From a virus (Duplodnaviria > Heunggongvirae > Uroviricota > Caudoviricetes), in the IMG/VR virus record IMGVR_UViG_2609460125_000009: a stretch of 64,000 nucleotides of DNA; one strand, given 5' to 3'. This document shows, piece by piece, positions 13,358-63,775 of the stretch. The notes below the pieces were generated by a model that worked only from the letters and a program-made list of their open reading frames with translations, had not been told where the DNA came from and searched no databases. A program made the position numbers and the translations under genes. The number at the start of each line of letters is the position of its first letter. The first letter of the stretch is position 1.

Positions 13358-13879
13358 TTATTCTTCGAACAATTTTTCGATAGATTTTGTAGGATAGAAC
13401 AAAGAACGCTCGTTGTTACCAACCAGCTGGATAAAGCCTAAACTTTTATAAAACGCCTTGGCTTTGTCATTTAACGCCTCAACGAAAAGTCCATGAATGC
13501 CTACAGCAAGAGATGCATTGTACACAACGCGCATTGCATGTGTTACAAGCATTGAGCCAAATCCTTGACCTTGAAGGGACTTGTCCAAAGCCAGCCTACC
13601 CAAAGTAACACTTGGAACATTCCGATAAGGAACCTTCTTTTGTTTGCTTCTTGAAGGTAAGGACTCCTTTTCAAAACAACTACCTGACAAAGTGTAATAT
13701 CCTAACACTTTTGGCCTTTCTTCTTGAGTGCAAAGCACATAAGCACGAAGAATTTTTCCCTCATGCTGCCTTTTTAAGTGGTTGGCTAAAAAGGCGTTTA
13801 GTGACTCTTCGCCGCAATCAAAACCGTTTAGATCATAATCTTTCTCTCCAGAGAAAATCTCTATCGTTGTATTGCTCAC
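13358..13879 (-). CDS. GNAT-family acetyltransferase toxin (TacT/KacT-like)
   Basis: 173 aa with GNAT acetyl-CoA fold motifs (QGQGFG...); immediately downstream of a DUF1778-type small ORF on the same strand. Confidence 0.75.
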   Translation of the reverse strand: MSNTTIEIFSGEKDYDLNGFDCGEESLNAFLANHLKRQHEGKILRAYVLCTQEERPKVLGYYTLSGSCFEKESLPSRSKQKKVPYRNVPSVTLGRLALDKSLQGQGFGSMLVTHAMRVVYNASLAVGIHGLFVEALNDKAKAFYKSLGFIQLVGNNERSLFYPTKSIEKLFEE

Positions 13880-13886
13880 GAGTAAA

Positions 13887-14156
13887 CTACTCCATGCTTT
13901 TCAGACGATCAGCAGCTCGTTTCAGCTTGTCGTTCGGTGCCGGAGGATTGCTTATAGCGTCCATAACCAGATTCCAGGATTCTTCATTCAGAACTAGTCT
14001 ACGGTGTTGCTCTATAACTTTCACGGCACGTTCAGATGCACTGCTAACCATAAACTGAGTAATGCTCTGGTTAGACATTGCGGCAGCTTCCTCGATGATG
14101 CTTTTATCGTCATCGGTTAATCTCAAATCGATGCGCTGCTTTTTTAGTGCTGACAT
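13887..14156 (-). CDS. DUF1778-family antitoxin (TacA/KacA-like)
   Basis: ATG at 14156 with AGGAGG upstream; product MSALKKQRIDLRLTDDDKSIIEEAA... is the typical N-terminus of DUF1778 antitoxins; ends 8 bp before the toxin start. Confidence 0.75.
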   Translation of the reverse strand: MSALKKQRIDLRLTDDDKSIIEEAAAMSNQSITQFMVSSASERAVKVIEQHRRLVLNEESWNLVMDAISNPPAPNDKLKRAADRLKSME

Positions 14157-14474
14157 GTATTCCTCCTGATGGCCGTGATGTAGGAAGGCCATCAATCTCC
14201 TCTGTTCAAACTGAGTTTTCGACTCAAAAATTACTTTAAAAGGCTATAGCCCATTACGTGTGCATTATCAAATTGTGTACGGCATAACACCGTACTTGTA
14301 ATATAGAGGTCATTGTTACTTTTTTCAACAGACAAATACAAGCTATGATTGCCAATTGTTAATCACAACCTACCATTTAACCTTTACACCGCAGCCGTAG
14401 GCATTTAGGCTATATCACATATAAGAAAACAAGTTGTTTCAGACGATAATTATATACGCAAAGGGAACTCTCCA

Positions 14475-15143
14475 ATGACCAAGATCTTTGTGGTTGGCGG
14501 CACAAAGGGCGGGCCTGGCAAATCCACCCTTGCCCAGCAAATTGCCGTTTGCCTTAAAGTCAAAAAGAAGAAGAAGGTTTATATCACTGATATAGATATT
14601 CAGCGCACGACAACAAGCTGGTGTGAAGACCGTCGACAGAACGAAGACCTTGAGCTGATTCCTTTTGCATACGTTCAGGATGACATCATTAAGCACCTAA
14701 AATCGCTTCAGGGTAGAGCTGAGTATGTAGTGGTAGATGCTGGTGGCTTCGACTCCGAAATTCAGCGACAAGCGATGCTGATGGCTGACGTTATCATTAT
14801 CCCGCTGCGTCCTAAGCGTCGTGATTTGAAATCTTTACGTGACATCGATCCTATTATCGACAATGTTCGCAATGTAAACGATAAAGTGAAGGTCCGCGCG
14901 GTCATGAACCAGTGCCCGGCTTTGCCATCACAAGTGTCTCGCATTCTGGCGGCTAAAGAGATTGTTGAGACGTTTGGAATCGAGTCTGCGCCAGTCAATC
15001 TGTATAACCGCAACGTCTATGATGATGCGGAAGAGTCTGGTCGTTCTATCTTTGAAATGACCGGTAGCGAGCGCGACAAAAAGGCGGAAGCCGAGTTTGA
15101 AGAATTTGTAGATTATCTGTTGAGTCTGGAGGAAGAAGAATAA
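14475..15143 (+). CDS. parA: ParA-family partition ATPase (small type Ib)
   Basis: Deviant Walker A GGTKGGPGKST near the N-terminus; 222 aa; followed by an overlapping small ORF. Confidence 0.85.
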   Translation: MTKIFVVGGTKGGPGKSTLAQQIAVCLKVKKKKKVYITDIDIQRTTTSWCEDRRQNEDLELIPFAYVQDDIIKHLKSLQGRAEYVVVDAGGFDSEIQRQAMLMADVIIIPLRPKRRDLKSLRDIDPIIDNVRNVNDKVKVRAVMNQCPALPSQVSRILAAKEIVETFGIESAPVNLYNRNVYDDAEESGRSIFEMTGSERDKKAEAEFEEFVDYLLSLEEEE

Positions 15144-15502
15144 TGTCCATGAAAATGGGTGACCTAGCAAAGCGCAAAGAGCCTGATGCACCGGCTAAGA
15201 ACACAACTCCTTTGCGCCAACCAGTCAGACCACAGGGACGCCCGACTCGTGGCAAAGAGAAAATTAAAAGCCGCACAATGTCACTGGAGGACGAATACTT
15301 CGAACTGCTGGAGATGATGAAGTTCATCCCTCGCTTCGAGAAGTTCACTCGTTCTGACGTGATTCGAGCAGCCATTTTCCATCTGGCAGAGAAGTCACCG
15401 CAGGAAATCGAGGACATCGTGAAATTGAATGAGGCGATCACCGCTGCCGATGTCACGATGCGTACCGATGAAATCAAACGAGAGTTGATGAAGAAAGGTT
15501 AA
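15143..15502 (+). CDS. ParG/ParB-like small centromere-binding protein (ribbon-helix-helix)
   Basis: Start overlaps the parA stop (TAATG); basic N-terminus and a C-terminal RHH-like segment. Confidence 0.55.
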   Translation: MSMKMGDLAKRKEPDAPAKNTTPLRQPVRPQGRPTRGKEKIKSRTMSLEDEYFELLEMMKFIPRFEKFTRSDVIRAAIFHLAEKSPQEIEDIVKLNEAITAADVTMRTDEIKRELMKKG

Positions 15503-40004: not shown

Positions 40005-42344
40005 ATGGCAAAAGGAAAATCCGCACTGGCACTTGCTCTGAAAAAGAAAATCGGTAGCAACGACGAAATTCAGAAAGTAACTCATTGGATTGACACAGGC
40101 TTTCCTCCGTTAAACAAAGCTATTTCCGGTCGTTACGATGGCGGTTTCCCATGTGGTCGTATCGTAGAAGTATTCGGGCCACCAAGCGCGGGGAAATGTG
40201 TTACCGCAGACACCATGCTGCTGACGGAGCGTGGAATGGTAACAGTGAAAGAGTTGTTTGAGATTGAAGGGTACAAAGCGACATGCACTACTCGCGATGT
40301 AGAGCATAACGTTGGACTCATCAATGAAAATGGCGTGATAGAGAAGACCTCACACCTGACATGGAACAACCGTCGCAAATTCAAGCGTATTAAGCTGGCA
40401 TCAGGCGGTTATATCGAGGCTACGTTCCGTCACCCAATCCGTGTGGTTGACGACTTAGGTAATGTCGTCTGGCGACATGCTGAAAAAATCAGTGTAGGCG
40501 ACACGATTCCTTCAATGGTTGGCACACATCAATTCGGCGATCAGCACCTGGATGCCAATATCGCAAAACTGATGGGCTATTTAATTGCTGACGGATACGT
40601 GGCCTCTGAAAATTCAGTGAATTTTTCTAACACAGATCCTTTCATCAAGGATGAGTACTACCGCCTCATTTCGCTGGTATCAGACAAGATGCCAGTTACG
40701 AGAAAACATAACGGCTCGGAAGACCATGTGCTGTTTAGCAAAGAGGTGCGTTCGCTGCTTTTTAAAGAATATGGTCTGGAGTATGAGAAAGCTGCTGGCA
40801 AGCAGGTTCCGTTGAGTGTGCGTCGCGCCAATAGCGAGGCTCAAATTGCATTCCTTCGCGGCTACTTTGAGCTGGAATGCCACGTCAATGATGGTCGCTG
40901 CATTGAGGTTGTGAGCGCGAGTGGGCTGCTGCTACAGCAAATTCGCCTCATGCTCCTGAATCTGGGGATTACGTCAACTATCTCTGAAAAACACGTCGCG
41001 GGTTATGAAAATACATATTACCGGCTGTCATTCAGTGGCTCTAATTACGACCTTTTTCTGTCAACGATTGGTTTCGAATCTCCGGCACGTTTATCAGTGG
41101 CAACCAAACGGGACATTGGTTTTGACCGCACTTACTCAGGCTATGTTCCGCACATCAGCGGCTTAGTGAAATCACTCTACGAGTCGCTCACCAAGACCAC
41201 CCGTGAAGACTACGCTCTGGTAGACCACGTTATTGGCCGCGGCGATCGTGTCGGAATAGACAAACTGCGAGAAATCTATGTCTCCTTCATTGGCAGAAAG
41301 AATCGTTTTAACGAGCATCTGTTTGCACAACTGGCAGCGGTAATTGGCTCTAACTTGTTCTACGACGAAGTCGTGGCTATTGAGGAAGGTGAAGCACCAA
41401 CGTTCGACGTAGCGATGCCGGAAACACACTCTTTCTGGTCTAACGGGATTATCAGCCACAACACATTCCTTGCAACAGCAGCGATGATCTCCGCTCAAAA
41501 ACAAGATGGTCTGGCGGTATTCCTCGATCATGAAAACAGTTTTGACGTTGGCCTGGCTGTAGCCAATGGCCTGAACGCAGATGAGGATGACGGTCAGTGG
41601 GTATACAAGCAGCCAGATACCTTCGAAGACTCTGTAGAGTTGATCGGCACAATACTTAAATTGGTTCGTGATGAAGAGCTTATCCCCGAATCAGCACCTA
41701 TCTGTATCGTGGCTGACTCTCTTGCGTCTATGGTTCCGAACTCCAAAGCCGAGAAGTTCGAAAAGATGGCTGAAGGCACAGCCAAAGACAAAGATCAGCT
41801 AAACATGAACGACAATACGGCACTGGCTCGTGCGACGAGTGCGAACTTCCCTACTCTGGCTTTGTGGGCACGCAAATACAACGCCTGCATCATCTTCTTG
41901 AATCAGGTTCGCACAAAAATCGGTGTAATGTTTGGCGACCCTACTACGTCGCCAGGTGGAGATTCACCGAAGTTCTACGCTTCTGTACGTATCCGTCTTG
42001 GTGCATCGGTGATGAAGGATGGTAAAGAGAAGATCGGCCAGGACGTAGGCGCAGAATGCATCAAAAACAAAGTTGCACCACCGTATGGCAAATGCACCTG
42101 GAAATTCTACTTCGATCCTACTCGTGGCCTCGACGTTATCGAGTCGCTCGTCGAGTACATGCTGGAAGAAGGATACCTGCCAAAGAACGCCAGCGGTCGA
42201 GTAGAAATTGGTGACAAGAAATACACCAAATCACAGATCGTCGAGATGTATCGGGAGAAGCCACTAGCTGAAATCATTGCGGCTTTACAGGCAATCGACG
42301 ACCGGAGATCAAAAGACAATCCCACCGAGTCAGTAGAAGAGTAA
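40005..42344 (+). CDS. RecA-family recombinase precursor containing an intein in the Walker A motif
   Basis: N-extein ends GPPSAGK, C-extein begins TFLATAA, so splicing restores GPPSAGKTFLA; the C-extein carries RecA-like core motifs. Confidence 0.85.
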   Translation: MAKGKSALALALKKKIGSNDEIQKVTHWIDTGFPPLNKAISGRYDGGFPCGRIVEVFGPPSAGKCVTADTMLLTERGMVTVKELFEIEGYKATCTTRDVEHNVGLINENGVIEKTSHLTWNNRRKFKRIKLASGGYIEATFRHPIRVVDDLGNVVWRHAEKISVGDTIPSMVGTHQFGDQHLDANIAKLMGYLIADGYVASENSVNFSNTDPFIKDEYYRLISLVSDKMPVTRKHNGSEDHVLFSKEVRSLLFKEYGLEYEKAAGKQVPLSVRRANSEAQIAFLRGYFELECHVNDGRCIEVVSASGLLLQQIRLMLLNLGITSTISEKHVAGYENTYYRLSFSGSNYDLFLSTIGFESPARLSVATKRDIGFDRTYSGYVPHISGLVKSLYESLTKTTREDYALVDHVIGRGDRVGIDKLREIYVSFIGRKNRFNEHLFAQLAAVIGSNLFYDEVVAIEEGEAPTFDVAMPETHSFWSNGIISHNTFLATAAMISAQKQDGLAVFLDHENSFDVGLAVANGLNADEDDGQWVYKQPDTFEDSVELIGTILKLVRDEELIPESAPICIVADSLASMVPNSKAEKFEKMAEGTAKDKDQLNMNDNTALARATSANFPTLALWARKYNACIIFLNQVRTKIGVMFGDPTTSPGGDSPKFYASVRIRLGASVMKDGKEKIGQDVGAECIKNKVAPPYGKCTWKFYFDPTRGLDVIESLVEYMLEEGYLPKNASGRVEIGDKKYTKSQIVEMYREKPLAEIIAALQAIDDRRSKDNPTESVEE
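40197..41462 (+). mobile_element. intein with LAGLIDADG homing-endonuclease domain (422 aa) inside the recombinase gene
   Basis: Begins with Cys (CVTADTMLL, intein block A), ends with His-Asn before the extein Thr; internal LMGYLIADGY and FLRGYFELE motifs. Confidence 0.8.
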
Positions 42345-44360: not shown

Positions 44361-44540
44361 TGAAGATTTTTATTGAATACTTGTTACTCATCGTTTCAAT
44401 AGCTTTTGTCATCGACTGCATTTTCACCGGTGTCATTCGTAAAGTCTTTTCCCCGGTGAACGACGTAGTCATAAACGCTTTGGCTATCGTGCTCGTATTT
44501 AATTCAGCATTTGATGTAATCAAAGAGGTGGCAGCATGAA
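44361..44540 (+). CDS. small membrane protein (59 aa)
   Basis: ATG follows a copy of the dispersed palindromic motif; hydrophobic; stop overlaps the next start (ATGA); below the ORF-track length cut-off. Confidence 0.3.
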
Positions 44541-44871
44541 GGCCATCCCATTCACTCTGTTGTTCCTTTCCTCGATCGTTGTGGCCGACACCACTGTTTA
44601 TCAGTGTGAAATGTCTGTAGCCGACGTTAAGAATGGCGCTCTTACCGACGTCATAAAAGCACCATATGGAGCGATGGTCGTAGACAGCGGCGACCAGTTC
44701 TATGTTGTGCGTGACGATCGAGTGTTGTCATCCCCATATCTCACAAACCGTAATGGCAAATTAACCGGCGTCGGAGAAGACCACTTCGTATACAACAAAT
44801 ACAAGGGCTTCTATGGCGTTCACGCTTCTCAGCAAAGCTACCTTTTCGATGACTGCAAGGAGGTTGGATAA
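44536..44871 (+). CDS. hypothetical secreted protein
   Basis: N-terminal signal-peptide-like segment MKAIPFTLLFLSSIVVA; 111 aa. Confidence 0.45.
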   Translation: MKAIPFTLLFLSSIVVADTTVYQCEMSVADVKNGALTDVIKAPYGAMVVDSGDQFYVVRDDRVLSSPYLTNRNGKLTGVGEDHFVYNKYKGFYGVHASQQSYLFDDCKEVG

Positions 44872-45083
44872 TGGCATTAACACTGGCAGGTCTGGAAATC
44901 GAGAAAACAAGCGGCTACTGGCGTGCTAAGGGTTTCAAGCAGCCTGGCATTCTTGAGCGTCTGGAACGTGAAGATGGGTATATCGTCCACCAGCGGCGTG
45001 AATGGCGTATGTACGATCCAGAAACAGGAAAACTGACTACAAAAGCCGGAACACTTTGGGGCCTGTTGAAGAAAATACACTAA
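44871..45083 (+). CDS. hypothetical protein
   Basis: 70-aa ORF whose start overlaps the previous stop. Confidence 0.4.
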   Translation: MALTLAGLEIEKTSGYWRAKGFKQPGILERLEREDGYIVHQRREWRMYDPETGKLTTKAGTLWGLLKKIH

Positions 45084-45093
45084 TAGCACCAAC

Positions 45094-45573
45094 CACTGCG
45101 GTGAGTAGCCAGCTCACCGCATTCGTATCAGCTCATTATCCACTGTGGTCTGCAGTCCTCTCTTCCTACATATCTGCTAACCACTGTAGCGAGTAGACAG
45201 CCTTTCATTCGCATCAAACAACCACTATGGTGAGTATTGGAGTGAGATGTACAGCGGGTATCCACTATGGTGAGTAAGCCTTTGCTGTTTTCAGTGGATA
45301 TCCACTCGCCACAGTGGATACGCTCAAAGATGAGGGCGACAACAACCACTATAGACAGTAAATTTTCCAAGATACCCAGTGACCACTAACCTCGCAGCCC
45401 TTGTTTCATCAGTGTTAGTGATCACTAACATTTGATTCAGTATTTGCATTCTACTGCCTACAGTGGTTATCAACAGATAACGATACTCACTATAGTGGAT
45501 AGCGAATTACAGATATAAGTAAGGCTCACTACAGTGGATAGTGAGCCTTACTACTAACTACAGTGGTTGGGCT
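45094..45573. repeat. iteron-like repeat cluster (about 12 copies of CCACTrTGG / CTAyAGTGG cores in both orientations)
   Basis: Examples: ccactgtggtctg 45140, aaccactatggtgagta 45221 and 45261, cactatagtggatagcg 45488, ctacagtggata 45528; lies at the 3' side of the initiator gene. Confidence 0.6.
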
Positions 45574-46627
45574 ATTTGCGAGTCTTTGCCTTGCGCAACT
45601 CTTCGAGAAGCGCCAGTTCTTCTTTACTCAACATGACCATTTTGCCTTCTTTTTCGTCAGGCACAACGTCGATAATGTCATCTTGATTCTCATCTGGGAG
45701 GCTATATTCCGTCTCATCATTATCGATTTTTGTTGATATTTGTGCCTGGCGTAACTTTGGCCGCCTATAGTGGATGACGAAGTAGACCGAGTTTCCGCGC
45801 TTAACTTCCGTGTAATCGAGATATCCTATCTCTCGCAGCTGTTCCATAGCCTTTCTTACCGTCGCATTCTGAGTAATAGTGCGACTTGTCAGATTAAGTC
45901 TGGCGCGTAAACGGGCTAGTGATATTGGTGCCGGATCAGGCGGCAAACTTTCAATAAAAGTATAAAGCGCCTGAGCGGATTCTTTTCTTGAGAGTTCGTT
46001 TATAGCCCGGAGTTGCAGAAGAACCTTTTTGTCGAACTGGTAGAGTTCGAAAATCTTGGGATCTGCTTTCAGTTCGACCGTATCGTGCTTGACACTATAT
46101 TTTGCCGTTTGCACAAGATGCGTTACGTAAAACTCATCAGAGCCTTTGCTACGGAACGAGATGGTATTTGTGGCAATACGGCTTAGCGAACTGTCCAGGC
46201 GTTTGCGTAACTTCGCTGATGACCTGGCGGTCGGAATGCCACACAGCCTTACAAACTCAACGAACGGCAACGTGACAGTATCGCCAACGACCTTGTGTTT
46301 GGCAAACGCGTGGATTATTCCCACCCACGTTTTAAAGTCGTTATCCATATCAAGCCGAAGGCCAGAGATCCTTATGTCTTCGTACCCTTCGGCTTTTGCC
46401 AGAGACAGCTGTTTGAGTTCAGCAGAGGCATCCATAGAGACCATTTGCCCCTTTCTTCCTCTGGATGTCGATTTCAGCGTCGGAACGAAGAGGCCCAGAC
46501 GCATCAAAGCAACAGGCTGAACAGTGTTATTAGTGTTAGGAACCAACGTAACAACTTCGCCTGTCTTTTTATCTGTTTCTGAAAATGCTTCAACGATCGC
46601 TATGTTTTTATTGCCGTTTTCGCTCAT
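45572..46627 (-). CDS. replication initiator protein (RepA/Rep_3-like, iteron-binding)
   Basis: 351-aa minus-strand ORF flanked on both sides by 21-bp-spaced direct repeats; charged C-terminus; assignment rests mainly on context and overall resemblance to plasmid RepA-type initiators. Confidence 0.55.
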
Positions 46628-46672
46628 TCCAAATGTCTCTTGTTATTCGACGGCTTTGGTGGCCTTTGCTGA

Positions 46673-47300
46673 TTACAGTGGATAGTAGCACTCATCACAG
46701 CGGTTATCCTACCGTCTATAGTGGTTTTTCTCCTCTCTATAGTGGTTGCTTTGCTCCCTATAGTGGATTATTCGCTCTCTATAGTGGATATCGATCATGT
46801 CTGAAGGCAGATGGCGCAACGGTTTGAGGTGGGCGGGGATCTTATTGGGTCTTTATGGGTCTCTTTGGTTCTCTTTGTGATCTGAATTACTGGATCGGGC
46901 CTGTGGATAAAAATCAGAGGATTTCAAGAACAGGTAACTCTACTCTTCTGTGGATATTTAAGGACATAAGAATCATGACTAAGAGTAGAGTTTAAAATAT
47001 ATCTATGTATATCAGTATGTTAATGAAGAATTAAGTCATTAAGTTATCCATAAAAGACAATGTGCTCTACTCTCTACAGTGGATATATACAGCTCTCCAG
47101 AGTGGTTGTTTTACTCTTCATAGCGGTTATTCAGCTCTCTACAGAGGTTTCTTTGCTCTCCATAGTGGATGGCAACACCCTTTCAGACCAGTAACCGCAA
47201 CGGCTAGAGGCGATCGGGGATCTCTTTGGATCTTCTATTTGATCTTACTTGGGATCTCTTATTTGGATCTATCCAGTGGATAACTGGGATAAGTAAAACA
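46673..47300. promoter_or_regulatory. candidate origin of replication: two iteron arrays, DnaA boxes, AT-rich block and GATC clusters
   Basis: Direct repeats CTCTATAGTGGwT at 46714, 46735, 46756, 46777 and at 47072, 47095, 47116, 47137, 47158 (21-22 bp spacing); perfect DnaA box TGTGGATAA at 46902-46910 and 8/9 matches near 46950 and 47044; AT-rich 46920-47060; five GATC in 47216-47270. Confidence 0.6.
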
Positions 47301-47370
47301 GGCAAATGCAGATTAAGGTATGCCTAATGAGTTATCGTAGCATCGGCCAATAACTACTGAAAAAACGATT

Positions 47371-48015
47371 ATGGATCTAAAACGCACGCGCTGGGTTCGT
47401 CGTCTTGAGGACGGCTCCTACACTATCGAATCAAATTCCAACCTGAATAAGCAGAAGTTACTTTGTGATATCTGCGGTATAGCGGCGAAGTGCCCGATCT
47501 ACGAAACCAGAATTAAACTTGATAAGGCTGGTGTGAACTTTCATTTGAATAGTTGTATCAGGTACGTTCCATTGCTCGCATTTCGTAAACCGATCATCGG
47601 ATTGGATGCGCCCTACTTCAACACACTCCGTTCAGGAGTAACGTGGCGAGATCGTTTATCACCAGACAAACTGATTTGCCTTGTATCCGCAGATACAGGA
47701 AAAATCATTCGTTTTGGGAAAGTAGACAAGGTTTACTCAGGCCCAGTTGACGAGATGTTGCGGAAACACAGCCGGTTTAATCACCTCTGCATGGGTGGTG
47801 AGAAAATAGAGAAGGTTGAAGAAGTGATCCGCAAATCCTACGGACACTTCCTGACCAAAGATAGCCTGCTCACTGCAATCTACATCAGACATGTAAAACG
47901 TGAGTTCGACCTTGAATACCATAGCGAAGAAGAACTGAACCTTGTCGATCCACGTCCTAAAGCTGGCGTCATAAGCATAAATGCAGCGCGTAAAAAGCCC
48001 ACTGACGCGCTGTAA
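47371..48015 (+). CDS. hypothetical protein adjacent to the origin
   Basis: 214-aa ORF; no motif recognised. Confidence 0.5.
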   Translation: MDLKRTRWVRRLEDGSYTIESNSNLNKQKLLCDICGIAAKCPIYETRIKLDKAGVNFHLNSCIRYVPLLAFRKPIIGLDAPYFNTLRSGVTWRDRLSPDKLICLVSADTGKIIRFGKVDKVYSGPVDEMLRKHSRFNHLCMGGEKIEKVEEVIRKSYGHFLTKDSLLTAIYIRHVKREFDLEYHSEEELNLVDPRPKAGVISINAARKKPTDAL

Positions 48016-63181: not shown

Positions 63182-63775
63182 ATGATTGCAGCCGAAAAAA
63201 TCAAACAGCGAAAGCGCGACAACTCTCTTCGTGACCTCTGGAGAACACCTGACTGGCTGTTTTCTGCCATTCAACGTTATCTTGGAGTGACATTTGATGT
63301 TGACGTTGCCTGCAACAAGGACAATGCAAAGCTGCCTAATTTCATAGGCGTTGAGCGTGATGCTTTGAAATCTGAATGGGGACAGCCAGGTACAATTGCC
63401 TTCCTCAATCCACCCTACTCCAAAATCTCCCCCTGGATTGATGCGGCTATACGTGAGCAGGCTCGCGGAGTTACAACAGTGATGCTAATTCCTCAATCCC
63501 TCGATACAAAGTGGTATGAGCGTGCAACAGAGTGTGCGAATGAGACGATTATTCTGTCTGGTGGCCGCGTAGCGTTTGTCGAGCCTGACGTCAATTTGGG
63601 TCAGGTAGAAGTAAACATCAACCCCGGTGGCAGTATGCTCGTTGTTTTTCGAGGATTTTGTCAGGACGCTGGGCACTCTATAAGCAAGATCCCTTTGGAC
63701 GTCATGAAAAGTCTGGGAGGGTATGATCCTGCGAATGTGATCAGGAAAAAAAGACCATCAAAGAAGGCTGCTTAG
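63182..63775 (+). CDS. DNA N6-adenine methyltransferase (phage Dam-like family)
   Basis: Catalytic motif FLNPPYS (NPPY); 197 aa, consistent with small phage Dam-type methyltransferases. Confidence 0.8.
   Translation: MIAAEKIKQRKRDNSLRDLWRTPDWLFSAIQRYLGVTFDVDVACNKDNAKLPNFIGVERDALKSEWGQPGTIAFLNPPYSKISPWIDAAIREQARGVTTVMLIPQSLDTKWYERATECANETIILSGGRVAFVEPDVNLGQVEVNINPGGSMLVVFRGFCQDAGHSISKIPLDVMKSLGGYDPANVIRKKRPSKKAA

Follow-up and report, generated by a model that had tools for sequence, protein, structure and literature searches.

How a phage genome might be replicated and maintained in its host as a plasmid is the question raised by a RepA-like gene lying among direct repeats in the window, by which the whole 64,000-nucleotide stretch of Caudoviricetes DNA analyzed here is meant (IMG/VR record IMGVR_UViG_2609460125_000009). 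An initial annotation had taken this combination of iteron origin and RepA-like gene to imply plasmid-like prophage replication, a reading supported by a Rep_3 initiator, a P1-like layout, plasmid carriage, and IncFIB typing. The region very probably serves an SSU5-like phage-plasmid as its replicon in the plasmid-prophage state, a theta-type replicon that is controlled by iterons and belongs to the RepFIB/P1 RepA family. Such a replicon, consisting of RepA and its binding repeats, is already known in kind from the P1/IncFIB family, and the use of IncFIB-type RepA replicons by SSU5-like phage-plasmids is already established; the less ordinary detail is an origin module in tandem duplicate (Table 1).

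Table 1. Features of the replicon and of associated genes in the window
Feature	Coordinates	Strand	Basis
repA, 351-aa Rep_3-family initiator	45572..46627	-	Pfam, PHROG, homology
Downstream (incA-like) control array, 12 iterons	45089..45570	six per strand	Matrix scan
Iteron-like site within the repA coding sequence, score 13.1	45758..45777	+	Matrix scan
Proximal iteron array, 6 copies	46666..46791	+	Matrix scan
Proximal origin core with GC-rich spacer	46792..46917	-	DnaA box, heptamers, alignment
Inter-module spacer with two 8/9 DnaA-like sites (46949, 47044)	46918..47066	.	Composition, duplex stability
Distal iteron array, 5 copies	47067..47172	+	Matrix scan
Distal origin core, closest to P1 oriR	47173..47299	-	GATC/DnaA pattern, alignment
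Exchangeable replicon cassette (downstream iterons, repA, proximal module, spacer, distal iterons)	45102..47181	.	Shigella comparison
Small ParA ATPase, 222 aa, partition function	14475..15143	+	Pfam AAA_31/MipZ/CbiA/ParA, phrog_164
Putative phage-type N6-adenine methyltransferase	63182..63775	+	Pfam Dam PF05869 (E = 2.5e-38), phrog_111

The sequence comparisons identify the window as an SSU5-like phage-plasmid. The locus was 99.3% identical to that of Escherichia phage Cyrano and 83% identical to that of SSU5, with syntenic flanks, and the same replicon is carried by pMT1 of Yersinia pestis and pHCM2 of Salmonella Typhi. Matches to the region were present in 247 of 5,426 complete E. coli genomes, none of them chromosomal, and all 405 of the 405 matching places in these genomes were plasmid-borne. 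In PLSDB, pAMPD01 (99.9% identical), pMT1, and pHCM2 were typed as IncFIB by MOB-suite, as were the Citrobacter and E. coli AH04 relatives; IncFIB is also the type given to SSU5-supergroup phage-plasmids (PMC7969092). The copy number of Cyrano is about 5.5 per cell (PMC9928086). Because classic FIB replicons have different iterons, true incompatibility with the FIB replicons of F and pO157 seems doubtful.

The 351-aa protein, initially described as RepA-like, proved to be a RepA by several measures. Both Rep3_N (PF01051; E = 1.3e-10, 42.2 bits against a Pfam cutoff of 22.4) and Rep3_C (PF21205; 22.6 bits against a cutoff of 21.1) exceeded their thresholds, and the protein was assigned to phrog_775 (E = 7e-146). 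Its identity was 91% to the RepA of pMT1/SSU5, 69% to that of the two-module plasmids of Pantoea agglomerans, 61 to 65% to that of classic IncFIB plasmids (E of about 1e-111 to 1e-114), and 47.5% over 254 aa to that of P1/P7 (E = 1e-71). RepA and its two neighboring proteins had no match in NCBIfam, and a search of the RepA sequence against the PDB gave nothing at an E value of ≤1. In a sigma-70 promoter scan, seven sites were found against 4.7 expected, none of them both convincing and conserved for repA. One candidate lay in the proximal array (46794-46767, 9/12), and a stronger one was located in the AT-rich spacer (47023-46996, 10/12). Neither was conserved in the pMT1-type relatives, and we claim no promoter for repA. 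An Rfam search of positions 44500 to 47800 at an E value of ≤1 was empty, so control by an antisense RNA is not indicated.

The iterons were mapped with a weight matrix of 20 nt, derived solely from the 11 upstream copies, with a score of ≥10 counted as a hit. All 24 of the 24 matches in the 64-kb window fell within positions 45089 to 47172, and mononucleotide shuffles of the window yielded 0 to 4 matches (mean, about 1.8). These 20-bp repeats are presumptive RepA binding sites. The two upstream direct-repeat arrays and the dozen mixed-orientation copies on the 3′ side of the gene, all noted in the initial annotation, were recovered. The start-to-start spacings were 22, 21, 21, 21, and 21 bp in the proximal array, which stops 39 bp before the repA ATG, and 23, 21, 21, and 21 bp in the distal array. 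No distal iteron matches the CTATAGTGG core exactly, and relatives share most of the deviations, at the same positions. In the downstream array, the iterons at 45282, 45302, 45451, 45483, 45522, and 45551 have the orientation of the origin iterons, and those at 45089, 45136, 45177, 45218, 45258, and 45342 are inverted; the number of downstream iterons differs between relatives (12, 14, 16, and 9). The iteron-like site inside repA is shared, position included, by pMT1 and E. coli AH04, and its conservation may follow from that of the protein. In FIB replicons, the upstream iterons form the origin, the downstream iterons serve in control and handcuffing, and Rep is autoregulated (PMC11983097). 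The proximal array is presumed to be the repA operator and is possibly also an origin array.

The upstream region is organized as two tandem P1-oriR-like modules, about 380 bp apart, each consisting of a core of approximately 125 bp with one or more DnaA boxes, phased GATC-bearing heptamers, and a GC-rich spacer, followed by five or six iterons. It is read as a tandem pair because the stretch between the arrays holds a second, GATC-poor copy of the core, which the first reading of the sequence had missed. In this proximal core, GATC is kept in three of six phased heptamers (46842, 46883, and 46897), and the other three read AGAACC, AGACCC, and AGACCC. Its alignment scores were z = 14 to the distal core, 12 to the P1 core, and 11 to the classic FIB core. 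Short signatures had suggested a hybrid of a proximal FIB-like and a distal P1-like module; this idea was dropped, as the order seems to be reversed in Pantoea and the proximal core is no closer to FIB than to P1. The proposed perfect DnaA box, TTATCCACA, was found at 46902-46910 and is one of two in the 64 kb, whereas the two 8/9 matches counted originally became three (46949, 47044, and 47275); in total, 4 of the window's 18 DnaA matches with at most one mismatch fall in the 700-bp upstream region. The AT-rich block reported between the arrays was likewise found (71% A+T, against 54% window-wide) and is the least stable duplex of the region. Despite this, it is unlikely to be an essential unwinding element, because neither its sequence nor its A+T content is conserved among relatives, in which the spacer is 61 to 64% identical, i.e., at the neutral level, and 56 to 60% A+T.

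The distal core carries two DnaA-box positions in tandem, TTATCCCAG at 47284-47292 and TTATCCACT at 47275-47283, as well as a GC-rich spacer and six GATC sites within 58 bp (47212-47269; spacings of 7, 10, 12, 12, and 13). This GATC run, already likened to SeqA/Dam-controlled origins in the initial annotation, is the sole such stretch in the window (Poisson expectation, about 4e-4 per window), and its spacing of roughly one helical turn is that seen at Dam/SeqA-sequestered origins. The 127-bp core was alignable with that of P1 oriR at 64% identity (z = 28 relative to shuffles) and with a Klebsiella SSU5-like core at z = 34. Both TTATCCACA and TTATCCACT are kept as TTWTNCACA in relatives. Furthermore, of 15 family loci examined, 14 have a DnaA box followed by four to six close GATC sites upstream of repA; the remaining locus has the run of GATC sites, and the pattern used detected no box there. 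The oriC-type 13-mer pattern GATCTnTTnTTTT was no more frequent in the window than expected (23 matches; expectation, 30), and its single one-mismatch match in the 64 kb lies in the distal core, at 47253. IHF consensus matches in the region were single, and none was conserved.

Both modules are conserved at 80 to 90%, above a neutral level of about 65% taken from repA third codon positions and spacers (61 to 68%), and these alignments indicate that both are under purifying selection. The proximal iterons are 89 to 90% identical to those of the pMT1/pHCM2/SSU5 lineage, and the proximal core is 87 to 89% identical in four relatives and 83% identical in E. coli AH04; the corresponding values are 87% for the distal iterons and 80% for the distal core. 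A search of E. coli genomes for natural one-module variants revealed none, the partial coverages being record-start artifacts.

Comparison with the PhiR41-type Shigella sonnei plasmid p1538007_2 delimited the region as an exchangeable cassette. This plasmid is 97.5% identical to the window up to position 45101 and 95.3% identical from position 47182, and between these flanks it has another RepA (the same type in phage records is 48.8% identical) and other iterons, with the core GCTGTCAGC. The distal core is the only core in the Shigella plasmid, and the cassette is joined to the backbone at this core.

Beyond the replicon, the ParA and the Dam-family methylase that had been attributed to the element are both encoded in the window. 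The putative partner of ParA, at best a candidate for the ParG (a ribbon-helix-helix, centromere-binding protein) of the initial annotation, is the product of a 119-aa open reading frame (15143-15502); it has no Pfam match and belongs to phrog_5111, which lacks a functional annotation; in the Cyrano record, its product is labeled a RelE/ParE-like toxin. The hosts possess Dam themselves.

From homology with P1 oriR and RepFIB, we infer RepA binding, dependence on DnaA and Dam, and the site of initiation. RepA monomers would occupy an iteron array, host DnaA would bind its box on the outer side of the core, and the heptamer stretch between them would open so that DnaB could be loaded. The heptamers would have to be methylated by Dam, and SeqA would sequester the hemimethylated core after firing; the Dam dependence of P1 was reportedly described by Abeles and Austin in 1987 and that of the pColV-K30 REPI replicon by Gammie and Crosa in 1991. 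RepA bound to the proximal array would repress repA, and the 12 downstream iterons would titrate RepA and handcuff the origin, giving a low copy number. In our working model, the distal module would be the Dam/SeqA-sensitive origin proper, because it has six intact GATC sites and tandem DnaA-box positions and is the sole core in the sister plasmid. The proximal module would keep the role of repA operator together with a constrained, methylation-poor core, which may serve as a second or auxiliary initiation site.

Set against this working model are the better conservation of the proximal core (87 to 89% in most relatives, against 80%) and its possession of the sole perfect DnaA box of the upstream region, so the proximal module as the main origin fits at least as well. 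In its strict form, which we consider rather unlikely, the proximal module alone would be the origin, as in classic RepFIB, with its origin array abutting repA; the distal iterons would be an extra upstream array for copy control or handcuffing, and the distal core would be kept only as conserved phage backbone and as the joint at which replicons recombine. Indeed, no noncoding parts are better conserved than the proximal core and iterons (87 to 90% in most relatives), the module is placed relative to repA as in P1 and FIB, and the backbone gives way to the cassette precisely where the distal core meets the distal iterons. However, the distal core presumably works as the origin core in the PhiR41-type Shigella plasmid, where it stands alone, within a flank that is 95% identical overall; it retains its six GATC sites, both DnaA-box positions, and an identity of 80% against the neutral 65%; and it is correctly spaced from five phased iterons, whereas three of six GATC sites have been lost from the proximal core. 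In mutational work on the P1 core, these bases were reportedly critical.

Another reading, which is also unlikely, would make both modules independent functional origins, one Dam/SeqA sensitive and one largely insensitive to methylation, for different conditions, e.g., steady maintenance as opposed to establishment following infection, or growth in one host or another. The purifying selection on both modules agrees with it, as do the two-module plasmids of P. agglomerans, whose proximal core has four GATC sites and whose RepA is 69% identical, and the fact that the non-GATC heptamers have stayed non-GATC between lineages with about 80% identity. Operator or handcuffing roles could explain the same conservation, however, and P1 and classic FIB, all the characterized relatives examined, use one module. 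Part of the element's replication is independent of the locus, because the Cyrano annotation includes a helicase, a primase, and Pol III alpha. With these genes, and a ligase, elsewhere in the genome, prophage-state replication could in principle proceed by phage-type functions, with the locus a relic and its repeats out of use; this is highly improbable, since repA is intact and, among relatives, 94 to 95% identical at codon positions 1 and 2 against 65 to 66% at position 3, the iterons and cores are conserved beyond the neutral level, iteron specificity covaries with RepA type across cassettes, and pMT1 and large Pantoea plasmids are also maintained by the replicon.

A broader scenario is offered with considerable doubt. 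The tandem duplication of a P1-type module may be old and selectively maintained in the pMT1/pHCM2/SSU5/Cyrano replicon and related Pantoea plasmids, and its copies may have diverged in function, the distal one into a fully Dam/SeqA-responsive origin on the phage backbone and the proximal one into an operator-linked core that shed half its GATC sites and kept its heptamer phasing. The result would be two differently regulated initiation sites, with an initiator-agnostic core as the crossover point at which near-identical phage-plasmids swap the RepA/iteron cassette and thereby the incompatibility type. The double array may already have been described for pMT1.

The replicon accounts for the persistence of SSU5-like phages as low-copy plasmids of about 100 kb in E. 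coli, in Salmonella Typhi as pHCM2, and in Yersinia pestis as pMT1. Resistance genes are reported on some members of the group. The two-module origin offers a natural test case of how far a P1-type core needs Dam methylation, and the clean cassette swap at the origin core suggests a way in which phage-plasmids could switch incompatibility type. In addition, the downstream iteron array is a ready target for curing or incompatibility; in classic FIB replicons, this array is an effective target (PMC11983097).

Among known systems, P1 has its parts arranged as they are here: first the DnaA boxes, then five to six phased GATC heptamers, the GC-rich spacer, five iterons at 21 bp, repA, and finally a mixed-orientation control array downstream. 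The P1 record annotates the DnaA site, Dam sites 1 to 5, incC, and incA, which match the parts found here; the iterons of P1 incA lie in two orientations, as in the downstream array, and both elements are plasmid prophages maintained by the replicon. They differ in iteron sequence (CTCnCTAyAGTGGwT here and GATGTGTGCTGGAGGGA in P1), in the number of downstream iterons (12 here and 9 in P1), and in the doubling of the module here, with three GATC sites missing from the repA-proximal copy. Furthermore, RepA is 65 aa longer here, with N- and C-terminal extensions, and the partition genes are not adjacent to the replicon.

By identity, the closest characterized RepA proteins are those of the classic RepFIB/IncFIB replicons (F, P307, and pO157), in which upstream origin iterons and downstream control iterons likewise flank rep (PMC11983097). 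These replicons have one DnaA box followed by five GATC sites, and they differ in having their own iterons with a ATAAACTGTA core, in having a single upstream module, and in being borne on conjugative F-type plasmids rather than a phage. The pMT1/pHCM2/SSU5 group has the same replicon subtype and the same two-module upstream region, with iteron arrays whose distances to the ATG are within 2 bp of those here, six distal GATC sites, and the same three non-GATC proximal heptamers. In contrast, DNA identity to this group is about 80%, pMT1 has 14 downstream iterons rather than 12, the DnaA boxes are one base off (TTATTCACA and TTATACACA), and the inter-module spacer is not AT-rich. A further possible parallel is offered by R6K (alpha, gamma, and beta) and RK2 oriV (5+3+1 iterons), where more than one iteron cluster is located upstream of the initiator gene or around it, with divided roles in initiation and control; the initiator subfamilies and cores of these plasmids are unrelated to those of the present replicon, in which the whole core is doubled and not the iterons alone.

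Upstream of repA, two origin modules, each made up of a core (DnaA box, GATC heptamers, and GC-rich spacer) and its adjoining iteron array, were arranged in the order distal module, 149-bp spacer, proximal module, repA. The proximal heptamers were CGATCC, AGATCA, AGAACC, AGACCC, AGACCC, and AGATCC. The distal and proximal cores aligned with z = 14, and the 39-nt repeat D7 was 79% identical between them; because the cores are homologous to each other, the origin module is evidently present twice, in tandem, a duplication that the initial annotation had left unremarked. Two modules were also found in pMT1, pHCM2, SSU5, a Citrobacter plasmid, and E. coli AH04, with array-to-ATG positions agreeing within 2 bp, and in a Pantoea agglomerans plasmid (RepA 69% identical), in which 4 GATC were retained in the proximal core. 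One module only was present in P1, in classic FIB, and in the Klebsiella and PhiR41 types (the latter being Shigella SSU5-like plasmids). No description of conserved tandem modules or of cassette exchange at the core was found in the searchable literature, outside which the original pMT1 papers lie.

Features of the replicon and their identity between the lineage of the window and the pMT1/pHCM2/SSU5 lineage
Feature	Position	Strand	Composition	Identity
Downstream iteron array	45089-45570		12 copies, six per orientation	
Exchangeable cassette	45102-47181 (p1538007_2, L011: 1211-3000)		iterons through cra side, ~2.1 kb	
repA	45572-46627	minus	351 aa; sole gene in interval, repeats on both sides	
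repA third codon positions				65-66%
Intragenic iteron-like site	45758-45777		CCGCCTATAGTGGATGA; in repA coding sequence, near 3' end	
Proximal module	DnaA box 46910-46902		six phased heptamers, GC-rich spacer, 6 iterons	
Proximal iteron array	46666-46791		6 copies, spacing 22/21/21/21/21	89-90%
Proximal core				87-89% (AH04, 83%)
Inter-module spacer	46918-47066			61-64%
Distal module	DnaA-box positions 47292-47275		six GATC heptamers, GC-rich spacer, 5 iterons	
Distal iteron array	47067-47172		5 copies, spacing 23/21/21/21	87%
Distal core				80% (AH04, 75%)
ASCH-side spacer				67-68%

The RepA-like gene proposed earlier was borne out by Rep3_N and Rep3_C domains, both over the Pfam cut-offs, by a match to phrog_775 (E, 7e-146), and by identities of 91% to the pMT1/SSU5 RepA, 69% to a Pantoea plasmid RepA, 61 to 65% to classic IncFIB RepA, ~49 to 51% to Klebsiella-type and PhiR41-type SSU5-like elements, and 47.5% to P1/P7 RepA (E, 1e-71). 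Sequence searches with RepA gave no NCBIfam or PDB matches, and no conserved repA promoter was found. When both strands of the 64-kb window were scanned with a 20-nt iteron weight matrix trained on the 11 upstream copies only (score, at least 10), all 24 sites fell inside 45089-47172, which agrees with the upstream arrays and mixed-orientation 3' copies first described; shuffled windows gave 0 to 4 sites with the same matrix (mean, ~1.8). The intragenic site, present in the matching place in pMT1 and E. coli AH04, may be a genuine site for RepA or may just follow from conservation of the protein. The GATC cluster was likewise recovered, as six GATC within 58 bp (47212-47269), a stretch without a second example in the window (~4e-4 expected under a Poisson model), and the AT-rich block between the arrays was 71% A+T. 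The perfect DnaA box (46902-46910; the 64 kb contain one other) stood, and the accompanying 8/9 matches numbered three (46949, 47044, and 47275) rather than two.

Nine of the 24 iterons had a terminal AGTGGATA, the complement of which, TATCCACT, is a 7-8/9 match to the DnaA box and, at 45136, has the sequence of P1's second DnaA box. Directly 3' of the repA stop lay an imperfect 21-nt inverted repeat (45511-45559; 86% complementary, 7-nt loop, one iteron inside), which could form a terminator-like hairpin lacking a T-run.

Shigella sonnei p1538007_2, of the PhiR41 type, matched the window at 97.5% identity as far as 45101, just beyond the stop of a cra-like gene, and at 95.3% identity from 47182 on. 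Between these joints it carried another RepA (~49% identity) and other iterons, with core GCTGTCAGC, and it was typed rep_cluster_488, not IncFIB. The right-hand joint separated the distal core from the distal iterons, and this core is therefore part of the shared phage backbone; it was the sole core in p1538007_2. Klebsiella SSU5-like plasmids had the same boundary, at window position 47201.

With repA third codon positions as the neutral yardstick, both modules are, on this comparison of lineages, under purifying selection, because their identity exceeds that yardstick. The three heptamers of the proximal core that lack GATC lacked it in every relative as well. Most deviations of the distal iterons from the consensus were shared at the same positions by relatives, and these copies are therefore not being homogenized. 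The inter-module block was the least stable duplex in the window, but as it diverges at the neutral level and is only 56 to 60% A+T in relatives, an essential role in unwinding is unlikely.

By analogy with P1 and RepFIB (PMC4980987; PMC11983097), these directly observed parts, with their phasing, homology, and conservation, would be used as follows: RepA monomers would bind the iterons, DnaA would bind the box at the opposite end of the core, and the heptamer stretch would be the site of opening. Dam methylation would be needed, with the hemimethylated core sequestered by SeqA; the proximal array with RepA bound would repress repA, and the downstream array would handcuff origins and limit copy number. 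Dam dependence is reportedly described for P1 by Abeles and Austin (1987) and for the pColV-K30 REPI replicon by Gammie and Crosa (1991); the steps that these sources do not cover are background on such replicons. The assignment that we favor gives the role of Dam-sensitive origin to the distal module and makes the proximal one an operator with an auxiliary, methylation-poor core. The reverse assignment, with the proximal module as origin and the distal module as control, is a live alternative, to which the higher conservation of the proximal core and its perfect DnaA box lend weight.

The 2.4-kb region was 99.3% identical to Escherichia phage Cyrano (the E. coli LF82 phage-plasmid pLF82) and 83% identical to Salmonella phage SSU5. 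It matched 461 PLSDB plasmids (437 of them non-mobilizable) at up to 100% identity, including Yersinia pestis pMT1 and Salmonella Typhi pHCM2, and the MOB-suite type of near-identical plasmids, pMT1, and pHCM2 was IncFIB. Matches occurred in 247 of 5426 complete E. coli genomes, and all 405 places were plasmid-borne. Most SSU5-supergroup phage-plasmids are typed IncFIB (PMC7969092), and Cyrano is a virion-forming plasmid with ~5.5 copies (PMC9928086). The proposed plasmid-like prophage replication is supported. Because the replicon is of an IncFIB/P1-family plasmid-prophage type that is already catalogued, in a phage-plasmid group that is already known, novelty is low. A preprint posted on bioRxiv in 2026, [quoted passage not shown] names repA 41 times, as well as pHCM2 and pMT1, and may hold direct copy-number-control data on this replicon.

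Elsewhere in the element, the Dam-family methylase (63182-63775) and ParA (14475-15143) genes were recognized from sequence, and the 119-aa ParA partner had no recognizable family and no support for the label "ParG." Directly upstream of parA was a TacT/TacA-like GNAT-toxin/antitoxin pair (13358-14195; toxin Pfam, Acetyltransf_7/1; antitoxin Pfam, TacA1, E 9e-26), which would be a plasmid-addiction module. A RecA-like recombinase (40005-42344) was 779 aa (2340 nt) long both in the window and in Cyrano, against 358 aa (1077 nt) in SSU5; the long form, labeled "hint domain-containing protein" in RefSeq, points to insertion of an intein behind the Walker A motif. A conserved 214-aa gene (47371-48015), divergent from the origin and annotated "ASCH RNA-binding domain" in Cyrano, had no Pfam match, belonged to a function-unknown PHROG, and kept its place beside the origin core in every SSU5-like replicon type.

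Fifteen family loci were oriented by repA direction: this window, SSU5, pMT1, pHCM2, Citrobacter, E. coli AH04, Klebsiella SSU5-like, Shigella PhiR41-type, two Pantoea, Kosakonia, two classic FIB, Klebsiella FIB, and P1. Fourteen had, upstream of repA, a DnaA box followed within ~20 bp by a run of four to six close GATC; the 15th had the GATC run and no DnaA box by the pattern used. The ~125-bp origin cores were mutually alignable; z-scores of the window's distal core were 28 for the P1 core, 34 for that of the Klebsiella type, and 29 for that of the Shigella type. The downstream array comprised 12 copies in the window and 14, 16, and 9 in pMT1, E. coli AH04, and Pantoea, respectively, with units in the far half ~40 to 41 bp apart; this variation suggests that units have been gained and lost and that copy number is possibly tunable. 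The curated P1 record has the order DnaA-binding site, Dam sites 1 to 5, five incC iterons (with PrepA within), repA, and nine incA iterons, the last in two orientations, with the repA-nearest copies co-oriented with the origin iterons and the far copies inverted, as in the window.
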